This document shows positions 17,631 through 20,600 of a DNA stretch of 64,000 nucleotides, one piece after another. The stretch is taken from contig JAZLJP010000041.1 in NCBI GenBank assembly GCA_045617985.1, positions 1,922 to 65,921 of the forward strand. Direction: 5' to 3'. Source of the DNA: Kiritimatiellia bacterium. GTDB taxonomy: Bacteria > Verrucomicrobiota > Kiritimatiellia > RFP12 > UBA1067. Each line of letters begins with the position of its first letter. Within the stretch, counting starts at the first letter, position 1. Position numbers and translations under genes: made by a program. The notes under the pieces are model-generated. The model was not told the origin of the DNA, ran no database searches, and was given only the letters and a program-made list of their open reading frames with translations.

Positions 17631-20600
17631 TATTTTGTTTTTCTAATTTCAGACAACACGAGTCCCCATAGGTACCAGGTATCTGATATACTCGATCTGA
17701 ATTCATGACTATGGTCATAATGCACTTCTGTGAAATTGAACATCTCCTGTAAGTTGTAATTACTTTTGAAGATTGAATCCATATTCAACTGCCCAATGGC
17801 AAGTGATCGAGATTGAACAACAAAGGAAAAGGCACACCATTTCGCACACTCGCCTCCATCAAAAAACGCAGTCGCTTCACGAACACCTTCCTGCGACATA
17901 GCCTCGCGCCAAATCGAATATTCATTACCCTGAACATCCGGCCTATTCCCTGGGAAAATCGCAAACTCGCCTTTGCTTGAATTTTGATAAAATACACCTT
18001 GTGTTGAAAATTTTTCTCTCTCATCATTAACAAAATTCCCCGAAGGATCCTGAGAATGATTCATGATCATGACATGTCCCCGTTTGAATCCAAAACTCTT
18101 ATCCATGAAACCGATATTTCTAAGGTTGTCTGGTTTCGTGGCATTATTCCCGAGCCAAACATTCAAGGCATAGTCTTGTCGATTATAGAAGTTTGCAGTA
18201 TTGCGCAATCCCGTCAAAACATTTTCCAGATAAGGCCTTGCGGGTCCATCTTTTCTGGGGAAATTCCCCATAATATCGGGAGCTTCGATCTCACTTTCCG
18301 TACCTTCACCCCATCTAATTTGATTAAGTAGAGTTCCCCAATATGCGAGTGATTCTGCATCATCTCTCGGTGTCATCGCATATGGATCAACATCAATTTC
18401 ACCCTTATCAGTAGCCTGTTTGACTATTGTCTTTCCAGCCTGAAATTTCGTTGTGTAATACTGCGCGCTAATTGCACCCTGAAACGCTAGATATGAAATC
18501 TTTCTTTTGGCTTCTGGATCTAAACGACGCATCATCTCCCCTACAACCACATTTCCCTGACTGTGTGTAATGAATGTAAGATGCGACAGGTTTTCCAATT
18601 CTCTTGAGAAAAACTCGGCCCCTTTTACACCACTCAGCCAAGCGCGATGTTCACCACGGTCGAAATGCGGACCATCCCAAATCCCTTCGGCGGATTTCGT
18701 GAGTGCATCCCAATTTTTCTTTACCCGCAACAATTTCCGGGGCCATTGCAGCGGACGCCATTTTGTCACATCCTTCAATTTTTTAAATTCAAGAGGGAGG
18801 TCAAAACCATATGTTGAAGGCCAAATAAACGTCCCAACCCGTCCCCTATACCCTTGCCAAAAGAGACGTTTGAAAACTGTATCACGCCACGCCTCCTTTT
18901 CCTGTTTATGCACATTCCAGCCTAAGACGAGCAATGTTTCGTCATCGGCAACGCAACCAGGCATGGATGCCGATGCAGATGTTTTAACGACATCTTTAAG
19001 TTGCAGGCGGAATTCATCCATCGCACTCGCATTTGTGTCATCCGTCTCGTCAATTGCAAATGTATCGGTGAATGCTACCACAGGATACAAATCCAACGTT
19101 AAGCTCGTCTGTCCCAAAATCATATTCCCCAACTTGACCTGGAATTCCAAAATTCCTTTCCCTGACTCAACCCCTTCATAAAGGAAATAATTATATTCGT
19201 TTGCTACTTGATCATCTCTCAACACTTGCCATTGTTGTTTGATGGTCAGTATCTTCCGTTGTTCCATCTGCTTGATCATATCTTGTTTCGCATTATCTGA
19301 AGTCGAAACATCACCAACACCCTCTGTCGTACTCTCAAAAGATGGGTCAAGCATTCCGACATTTGCCTCGGGTGTTAGTAGATTTCCGAAATCCGCTTTC
19401 TCCTGATGCGTTAAGCGACCTTTTTGCCCTGTGATACAAAAGTTATCACTACTCACCGCAGGGAACAAATTAATCTGAGGCTTTTTAGTGGACAGTTTTT
19501 CGTCAATCGGACGCAAACGACATTCGTAGACGAGCTGACCTTTAATTTTTAACAATTTCGGATCAAGATGAAAATGCAATCTGTCAAAATCCTCCAAATC
19601 TCTAAAACAGTAGTGCTTAACGTTTTCGTTGTCACACAGATAATTCAAATTGGGTTTCCCTTCTGCAGCACCAATGACATCGTCATCGCAATTTCGACAC
19701 GAAACCCCTTGATTTTTTCCGCATTTATCTTTATCATCGTCTTCCTGATACATATCCTCAAAAAAATGAACTACGTCAAAATCATCATTCACCCAAAACA
19801 TGAGATTATTGTCGTTGGGATCGTTGAAGTCGATTTTACCGTCTCTCACTCCTCCATCGCCGGCGATTTGGAAGATGGGGGCGGTTACTTTCAACTTGGC
19901 GCGGCATTCGTAGCCGTATGCATCACCCATCCCCTGATAAATCGCCTCTATCGTAACTGTCGTTCCTTGTTCGGAAACACCCAGCCAGAAGCAATAGTCA
20001 CTAGGGGAGAGGTTGCCGCTCGCTACCACAAACGTTTTTTGCTCTTCCCCCTTTGCGAGCGTGCAAATCGGGCTTGTCTGCTCTAGGTCACCTGACGAAT
20101 AGACACCGATTTCACCATTACCCTTTTTGCGCCGAATCGTCAAGGAAATGTCACCGTTGAGCCCAACATCGGACTTCAAATTGAAAAGATGTCGCTGCTC
20201 CGTATCCACAACCCAGCCGAGTTCGAGTTTCTTCATTTGCGGTACGAGTGCCCTGTCCTTCTCATCAACTGCTCCATCGCGATTCAGATCGGGGATGAGC
20301 CGGAGACTGTAGACCGTGAAACGAGTTTCATACGAAGAGAAATATTGATTTCCGTCACTCTCGTACCCCATGGTCTGCCAGTTGATAGAAGCATCCTCCG
20401 GAGAAGAACTCACTCGTCTCCCCTCTATATAAGCGGGATTTTCAGCACCAAACAAATTATACCAATCCATAGACTTACCATCGTCCAACCATGCGTGTAC
20501 CCCCACTTGATCGGTCGGGAGGAGGCATTGCCATTTTGCATGATGCGGGCACTTGCAACATTCCGGTGCCCAAGGAACTACGGGATCGAGTTTCTTCAAA

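Follow-up and report, generated by a model that had tools for sequence, protein, structure and literature searches.

What does the tip of a giant exported protein do when it reads like a lipase and its gene ends on the start codon of another exported protein? This question is raised by a 64,000-nucleotide (nt) stretch of DNA, the window, from a Kiritimatiellia bacterium (GTDB lineage Bacteria; Verrucomicrobiota; Kiritimatiellia; RFP12; UBA1067; assembly GCA_045617985.1, contig JAZLJP010000041.1, forward-strand positions 1,922 to 65,921). A sequence-only reading of the window had likened the end of the protein to DUF900-type alpha/beta hydrolases and placed it as the toxin of a toxin/immunity pair. 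We compared the domain, its predicted fold, and its gene neighborhood with those of its relatives. The results largely support a new DUF900-like hydrolase toxin family accompanied by a new immunity family, with activity, substrate, and immunity function predicted. We consider it reasonably probable that the giant protein is a Sec-exported, polymorphic-toxin-like effector whose Ser-Asp-His tip hydrolyzes envelope lipids of competitors and is neutralized by the exported partner encoded downstream.

The hydrolase domain comprises the last ~440 residues, the extreme C terminus, of a 2,494-amino-acid (aa) protein. Residues are numbered here within a 456-aa C-terminal segment, residue 1 being the codon at window positions 19000 to 18998. 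The motif order on which the resemblance had been based, LLVLGWN, GTFIWPSTYG, FDRGEHRAWLSG, LTFITHSQGNVVVGEMMRRL, and YLAFQGAIS, is present in the translation of 17630-25279 (minus strand), and the Ser proposed as the nucleophile is encoded by AGT at 18560-18562, within THSQG. An insertion was also said to follow WPS. It does, but it measures 33 aa against the family profile (residues 68 to 100) and not ~50 aa. The domain has the following features:

17633-18952, minus strand: C-terminal alpha/beta-hydrolase domain of a DUF900-like family, from the family search, alignment A2, the AlphaFold2 (AF2) model, Foldseek, and DUF900 matches in relatives.
18920-18925, minus strand: LG in place of the family's HG in the oxyanion-region motif VHGWN, from the alignment of representatives.
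18560-18562, minus strand: candidate nucleophile Ser147 (AGT) in the elbow T-H-S-Q-G-N; Ser in 144 of 144 aligned representatives; after model strand 140-146, with a predicted local distance difference test (pLDDT) score of 97.
18173-18175, minus strand: candidate catalytic Asp276 in NRQDYAL; Asp in 146 of 146; just after model strand 267-272.
17711-17713, minus strand: candidate catalytic His430 in HYDHSHEF; His in 148 of 148; after the last core strand, 413-416.
18701-18799, minus strand: window-specific insertion 1, 33 aa, after WPS, from hmmalign to the family hidden Markov model (HMM).
18308-18418, minus strand: window-specific insertion 2, 37 aa (residues 195-231), after strand b6, of low pLDDT, from hmmalign and AF2.
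17876-18115, minus strand: insertion-rich beta region between Asp and His, with ~55 extra residues scattered over 296-375, from hmmalign and AF2.

We searched 1.84 billion cluster representatives exhaustively with HMMER and obtained a family of 911 representatives at E ≤ 1e-3. The resemblance is far above chance, because 383 representatives match at E ≤ 1e-10. Within the family the domain is ~300 to 320 aa long, and full-length matches end no more than 25 residues from the C terminus of host proteins of 300 to 2,550 aa. Alignment A2, made of the window query and 27 short family members (28 sequences), has 21 invariant columns. All of them are kept in the window copy, including the Ser, Asp, and His; they cover H146-S147-x-G149 (HSxGN), N273-x-x-D276-x-A278 (NxxDxAL), and H430-S431-x-x-F434. 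The residue counts listed above were taken from 150 representatives with a mutual identity of at most 50%, and every aligned representative has the Ser, the Asp, and the His. At the VHGWN position, 135 of 141 aligned representatives have His and 5 have Leu, while the Gly is invariant. The LG variant is common to the window copy and its closest relatives, a clade of 5 representatives. A word-indexed protein search gave 8 matches, every one named "hypothetical protein."

Matches to the family were also found as parts of a domain. About 25 of the 150 representatives match only as far as query residue ~183 or ~295 and continue with 95 to 250 unrelated residues. A genome HMM search found no further family copy in the bacterium's own genome (4.6 Mb, 94% complete), and of 61 genomes from its genus, family, and order, 36 have 1 to 8 matches each, covering only HMM positions ~40 to 235 and lying inside long open reading frames (ORFs). 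Up to 8 copies of such Ser-half subfamilies occur per genome within the same genus. Judging from these alignments, the Ser-bearing half is common to subfamilies with differing C-terminal halves.

We modeled the domain with AF2. The model made with alignment A2 has a mean pLDDT of 72 and a predicted template modeling score (pTM) of 0.76, with core strands and helices above 90; a single-sequence model of the window domain was unusable (pLDDT 34). The first part of the model runs strand 20-25, helix, strand 54-57, helical insertion, strand 140-146, Ser147, and helix 149-159. The second part runs strand 168-173, insertion, strand 267-272, Asp276, helix, beta-rich insertion, strand 413-416, His430, and C-terminal helix. 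In the model, this succession is the b3 to b8 order canonical for alpha/beta hydrolases: the nucleophile follows b5, the acid b7, and the His b8. The nucleophile elbow, small residue-x-Ser-x-small residue after b5, is represented by T-H-S-Q-G after strand 140-146, with its H, S, and G unchanged throughout the family. Thus, a Ser-Asp-His triad can be assigned in canonical order to residues that do not vary across the family; Ser147, Asp276, and His430 are candidate catalytic residues whose spatial geometry we infer from the model.

The alpha/beta-hydrolase fold that had been expected is borne out by this model and by its structural matches. Nearly all of the top 50 Foldseek matches in the PDB are alpha/beta hydrolases (E values of 2e-3 to 5e-2, probabilities to 0.99), and the search against BFVD gave the same picture, the probabilities across both databases reaching 0.99 to 1.00. 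PDB matches include BioH3 esterase, the type VI secretion system (T6SS) effector Tle3 (8boz), cutinases, Bacillus subtilis LipA, Legionella PlaB, PPT2, and gastric lipase. Tle3 is the second-best of them.

The best Pfam relative of the family is DUF900 (PF05990; gathering threshold 20.5 bits, profile of 232 positions), and profile matches indicate that this relation holds for the family as a whole but is limited to its N-terminal half. Scanned one by one, 26 of 28 family members match DUF900 at E ≤ 10; among 32 longer members, 23 do so at E ≤ 1e-3. Several relatives exceed the threshold, with 22 to 41 bits (41.0 for P0121, 33.4 for P0145, and 29.7 for P0005), as does the family consensus with 33.6 bits (E = 3.6e-8). 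Compared with the window domain, P0005 has 35% identity in BLASTP, with 99% of the query covered, and 50% identity in the stretches that HMMER matched. These matches are confined to profile positions ~14 to 124 of 232, a span that runs from the HG strand as far as the helix that follows the nucleophile. The elements that align in it are two strands (HG and F.WP(S/T)), an acidic/aromatic helix, and the AHS(M/Q)GN elbow, whereas the Asp, the His, and the beta insertion of the family's C-terminal half match no part of DUF900. No Pfam match was obtained with the C-terminal half, whether taken from the consensus or from the window copy.

The window copy itself is not a DUF900 member by the Pfam criterion, having no score at or above the gathering threshold; a Pfam search with the last ~450 aa found nothing even at E ≤ 10. 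Its link to DUF900 is transitive, since the window copy is unmatched while its relatives and the consensus score. The PF05990 profile matched no protein in the bacterium's own genome or in 14 control genomes, so the relation rests on the HMM matches of relatives and consensus. The DUF900-type resemblance therefore stands for the family's N-terminal half; it was not recovered for the C-terminal half, and the proposed equivalence of YLAFQGAIS to the LAAPD motif was not validated, because DUF900 aligns only to profile ~14 to 124. Weaker secondary Pfam matches of members and consensus are to Abhydrolase_6/8, DUF676, LCAT, PGAP1, Lipase, Palm_thioest, and Tle3, the last with E values of 0.09 to 0.12 in two members and the consensus. 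In a profile search of PDB sequences, the elbow aligned to AHSMG of lysosomal phospholipase A2 (LPLA2) and of B. subtilis LipA, which was not significant (E = 0.12 to 1.3). Overall, the comparisons largely support an undescribed but widespread hydrolase family, distinct from DUF900, with a DUF900-like N-terminal half.

DUF900 is still listed as of unknown function, and DUF900 proper is described as stand-alone alpha-proteobacterial proteins (PMC11878206), in contrast to the present domain, which is the C-terminal tip of giant proteins and has a coupled partner gene. Our literature search turned up a single characterized DUF900-type protein, cinquedea. It is an alpha/beta hydrolase of archaeal origin that is secreted and acts as a bactericidal phospholipase A, and 69% of its homologues carry DUF900 (bioRxiv 10.64898/2026.06.10.730825).

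The domain is carried by a single long gene, of which three parts are needed here:

17630-25114, minus strand: giant exported protein gene, 2,494 aa from the ATG at 25112-25114, in an ORF open from 25279 (ORF list and translation).
25037-25114, minus strand: predicted Sec signal peptide MRIVSRGSVSAVGAALVVLISILAVA with an AVA|S cleavage-type motif, read from the sequence by eye.
19031-19870, minus strand: acidic pre-domain directly N-terminal to the hydrolase, kept in nearly all long family members (HMM 149 bits, residues 1804-2083).

The start of the giant protein is likely the ATG at 25112-25114. A Shine-Dalgarno-like AAAGGTGG precedes this codon, and the relative P0006 begins at the equivalent Met. 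The public gene call P0003 (2,462 aa) begins at Met88 of the open frame, 3' of the probable signal peptide (25016-25279, minus strand). We favor the 2,494-aa form over this call because of the Shine-Dalgarno-like site and the N terminus of P0006. Pfam found 12 OCRE-like repeats and four TSP3_bac repeats in the whole protein and no other family. The N-terminal regions of 32 relatives scanned with Pfam are mutually unrelated and include TSP3, Big_1, RCC1, LamG, beta-helix, tetratricopeptide repeat (TPR), transglutaminase core, and PKD domains. On these otherwise unrelated N termini, the pre-domain and hydrolase form a conserved unit of ~550 to 750 aa. The pre-domain is ~280 aa long, has the motifs D.NRDG.I.F..D, FWVNDD, DCDDD.IG, and RDLEDF.RLH, and has no Pfam or PDB sequence match; it may be a Ca-binding, processing, or translocation module. 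A likeness to the PAD middle domain was considered and dropped for lack of Pfam or PDB support.

Downstream of the giant gene lies an array of related exported proteins, interrupted by a fragment of the hydrolase:

16386-17630, minus strand: partner (putative immunity) gene 1, 414 aa with a signal peptide; its start overlaps the stop of the giant gene, and homologues lie downstream in related loci.
15337-15867, minus strand: orphan fragment covering family-HMM positions 188-355, the Asp-His half without the Ser, inside the ORF 15286-16116 (BLASTP and genome HMM search).
14063-15283, minus strand: partner paralogue 2, 406 aa, next after the orphan (alignment A1, in which the paralogues share 30 to 34% identity).
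12592-13854, minus strand: partner paralogue 3, 420 aa (alignment A1).
11371-12558, minus strand: partner paralogue 4, 395 aa (alignment A1).
10698-11345, minus strand: truncated fifth partner paralogue, 215 aa (alignment A1).

The TAA stop of the giant gene at 17630-17632 overlaps the ATG of partner gene 1 at 17628-17630, in agreement with the proposed position of the domain at the extreme C terminus, coupled to a secreted protein. A second ATG of partner gene 1 lies 12 nt further on, at 17616-17618, after a GAGGTGG Shine-Dalgarno-like site. The intact partner paralogues of the window are mutually 30 to 36% identical. The partner protein starts with a CarboxypepD_reg-like beta-sandwich (a sub-threshold match) and ends in a coiled coil. 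In the orphan ORF, residues ~93 to 261 match hydrolase segment 241-454 with 35% identity (E = 1e-35, BLASTP), and no remnant of the Ser-bearing N-terminal half was found in it.

To see the arrangement in other organisms, we scanned one genome per species, which gave 396 related stretches, and fetched 79 loci. They come from Verrucomicrobiota, Kiritimatiellia, Lentisphaerota, Desulfuromonadales and other Desulfobacterota, Holophagae, Planctomycetota, and metagenome-assembled genomes of Omnitrophota. The gene directly behind the hydrolase is a partner homologue in 62 of the 66 loci with a readable downstream ORF. These homologues are 330 to 415 aa long, all have an N-terminal signal peptide or transmembrane (TM) anchor, and the gap to the hydrolase is typically -4 to +20 nt. 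The partner HMM found at least one partner gene in 75 of the 79 loci and two to four in 18. Tandem hydrolase-partner pairs occur in L002, L047, L065, and L066, and three pairs occur in L068. Partners diverge faster than the toxin C-halves that they follow (L002 pairs, L003, and L004): for the two L002 pairs, C-halves are 78% and partners 57% identical. Between L002b and L004, the partners are 91% and the C-halves 94% identical.

Orphan tip/immunity cassettes are present in the window (15337-15867 with 14063-15283), L041, L065, and L082, and an Asp-His-half orphan cassette is also found in a congener. In L041 the C-terminal-fragment orphan stands behind the partner. On the independent contig L082, the orphan covers HMM 208-356 and immediately precedes a partner gene; upstream of it no N-terminal half is present. 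Orphans start near family-HMM position 190 to 280, and the region where subfamilies switch coincides roughly with where orphan fragments begin. In L082, a GGGGCCTGTCCCCG element (positions 100-175) lies just upstream of the orphan C-terminal-half ORF. The toxin/immunity position proposed for the window is thus backed by conserved pairing with a downstream gene family in other phyla, by arrays, and by orphans, in which the partner would have a protective role.

The locus lies in a low-guanine-plus-cytosine (GC) island absent from congeners, and only the bacterium's own genome has the window subtype. The block from 10.5 to 25.3 kb has a GC content of 0.50, versus 0.62 for the rest of the window. 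Within the giant gene (17633-25114) there are further steps, from 0.51 to 0.55 in the N-terminal two-thirds to 0.41 to 0.43 in the pre-domain and hydrolase. Such steps within a single gene suggest that this C-terminal module is a separate and recent graft.

In the effector reading that we favor, the giant protein would be exported via Sec plus one of the secretins of the genome. Its C-terminal unit of pre-domain and hydrolase (~600 to 750 aa), ending in the predicted Ser-Asp-His alpha/beta hydrolase, would cleave ester bonds of envelope lipids, as a phospholipase or esterase, acting on a competitor's membrane from its periplasmic or outer side. In the producer and its kin, the hydrolase would be bound and neutralized by the exported partner, and the extra partner paralogues and the orphan C-terminal fragment would be spare or former immunity and toxin-tip cassettes. 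A lipid-ester substrate is suggested by the elbow class AHS(M/Q)GN, common to LCAT/LPLA2, LipA, PGAP1, and DUF676, by fold matches that are lipases and cutinases, and by cinquedea, a DUF900-type bactericidal phospholipase A. As to export, no TssC was found and the genome encodes five secretins, so Sec export followed by a secretin-type step is possible.

A more tentative idea, to which we give a limited chance, concerns how such proteins diversify and are delivered. The Asp-His half recognized by the immunity protein would be swapped by recombination inside the enzyme while the nucleophile half stays constant, and delivery would use another route that needs the acidic pre-domain and does without a T6SS. 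This idea of half-domain cassettes draws on the Ser-half common to subfamilies and on the switch region that roughly equals the orphan starts. It would mean exchange of half a catalytic domain, whereas contact-dependent inhibition (CDI) and Rhs systems exchange whole toxin domains.

Several results weigh against an antibacterial lipase-type effector. The window segment (436 to 456 aa) has no Pfam, NCBIfam, PADLOC, or PDB sequence match, even at E ≤ 1 to 10, and its core with the insertions deleted still has no DUF900 match in Pfam at E ≤ 10. After b3 the window copy reads VLGWN, His being replaced by Leu with the Gly kept, and ~125 extra residues of the domain are of low model confidence. Foldseek E values are modest (2e-3 and weaker), and template modeling scores are low because of the insertions; therefore, there is no close structural relative. 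None of PAAR, VgrG, Rhs, TPS, or LXG was found by Pfam in the giant protein or its 32 relatives, and the T6SS sheath gene TssC was not found in the 94%-complete genome, while the Escherichia coli control was positive. Searches of Pfam, NCBIfam, and the PDB gave nothing for the partner family save the sub-threshold beta-sandwich; it matches no known immunity family and is large for an immunity protein at 330 to 420 aa.

These points bear on three other explanations. The domain could be a housekeeping esterase, at the cell surface or secreted, that serves nutrient acquisition or envelope remodeling on an adhesin-like stalk, with the partner acting as a Lif-like foldase, chaperone, or anchor. The adhesin- or surface-like N termini (OCRE, TSP3, Big_1, LamG, beta-helix, and RCC1) fit this explanation, as does the lack of toxin-delivery markers. 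Lif proteins are lipase-specific foldases encoded beside lipA, with an N-terminal TM anchor and a Pro-rich linker. The partners resemble them in size (~350 aa), in their N-terminal TM anchor or signal peptide, and in an often Pro-rich linker, and strict one-to-one pairing would be expected of an enzyme and its foldase too. However, there is no Lipase_chap or other chaperone match: the Lif assignment (PF03280) was rejected, as no Lipase_chap match was found in the 9 partners scanned at E ≤ 0.1 to 1, and the partner begins instead with the CarboxypepD_reg-like sandwich. Partner arrays of 30 to 36% identity, partner copies that lack an enzyme, orphans with a partner of their own, and repeated pairs are all unexpected for a foldase, and an island absent from congeners, with a subtype seen only in its own genome, is at odds with housekeeping. 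We therefore regard this explanation as unlikely.

Alternatively, the domain could be a toxin that is not a lipase, a Ser-Asp-His hydrolase that attacks peptidoglycan-linked esters or amides, lipoprotein, or O-acetyl groups. Alpha/beta hydrolases span many chemistries; for Tox-ABhydrolase-2, an assignment of lipase activity was not possible in Zhang et al. 2012 (PMC3482391), and DUF900 is officially of unknown function (PMC11878206). No relatives are known for the C-terminal half or for the large insertions, the parts that would shape the substrate pocket. Against this stand the secondary family and fold matches, all of which are lipid-ester hydrolases, and the phospholipase A activity of the sole characterized DUF900-type protein found, and we hold a non-lipase chemistry to be decidedly improbable. 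The HG-to-LG change, the three insertion zones, the missing direct Pfam match, and low model confidence in about a quarter of the domain could also mark a catalytically impaired relic, retained as the adhesive or structural end-domain of a once-active hydrolase. Yet all 21 family-invariant positions, including the Ser, Asp, and His, are kept, the reading frame is unbroken over 2,494 codons, the coupled partner gene is retained, and the LG variant is shared with the closest relatives in a clade of 5 representatives. A relic thus has very little to recommend it, and we return to the proposed lipid-hydrolyzing effector neutralized by its partner.

The logic of this system is that of Tle/Tli pairs and polymorphic toxins, while its hydrolase family, its partner family, its pre-domain, the lack of a known delivery marker, and its half-domain orphans differ. 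Like the T6SS pairs Tle1-4/Tli (e.g., Tle3-Tli3, 8boz), it combines a GxSxG-type alpha/beta hydrolase with an exported immunity-type gene directly downstream, often in several copies. Unlike Tle effectors, the hydrolase has no significant Tle family membership (PF24322 Tle3, E of 0.09 to 0.12), it is fused to a giant protein with a Sec signal, and PAAR, VgrG, Rhs, and TssC were not found. The partner is unrelated to known Tli proteins in Pfam and PDB searches, and an assignment as a known Tli was set aside, there being no family or PDB match.

As in polymorphic toxins (PMC3482391), a C-terminal toxin-like domain sits on diverse N termini, with an adjacent gene and with orphan tip and immunity-type modules downstream. 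Where a recognized N-terminal trafficking or pre-toxin domain would be expected in such a toxin, the giant protein has only a Sec-type signal peptide and an unclassified pre-domain. Tox-ABhydrolase-2, reported from Verrucomicrobia and Acidobacteria, has the signature NG, [DE], [KR], HSxG, D, H and the immunity protein Imm-SUKH (PMC3482391); its HSxG, D, and H are compatible with the present family when compared by the described signature only. Tox-ABhydrolase-1, -2, and -3 are tied to RHS/FilH repeats, to type V, VI, and VII secretion systems (T5SS/T6SS/T7SS), and to Imm-SUKH, Imm66, or Imm69, whereas here such repeats are missing and the exported partner differs; the partner has no SUKH match in Pfam. 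Orphan cassettes of CDI and Rhs systems also differ, in that the orphans of the present loci contain no more than half a catalytic domain. In the literature searched, we found no paper linking PF05990 or Kiritimatiellae to toxin-immunity systems.

Two neighboring genes flank the island. A membrane-anchored protein with two AAA+ modules and AAA_lid_6 (CbbX/SpoVK-like) is encoded at 5986-8139 on the minus strand, ~2.4 kb past the island border. Directly at the other border, 25350-27650 on the plus strand encodes a 766-aa signal-peptide protein with four BPL_N/GATase-like stretches.

If the effector reading is true, the hydrolases would form a large toxin family that has gone unannotated, comprising hundreds of clusters at 50% identity in Verrucomicrobiota, Kiritimatiellia, Lentisphaerota, Desulfuromonadales, and Holophagae, together with a new exported immunity family. 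It would give the DUF900 branch a second, bacterial functional context besides archaeal cinquedea, and the hydrolase and its partner would make a tractable two-gene module. The pre-domain may then mark an undescribed delivery route of antibacterial lipase-type effectors in bacteria without a T6SS. Such a toxin and antidote would concern little-studied bacteria of the Planctomycetes-Verrucomicrobia-Chlamydiae (PVC) group.

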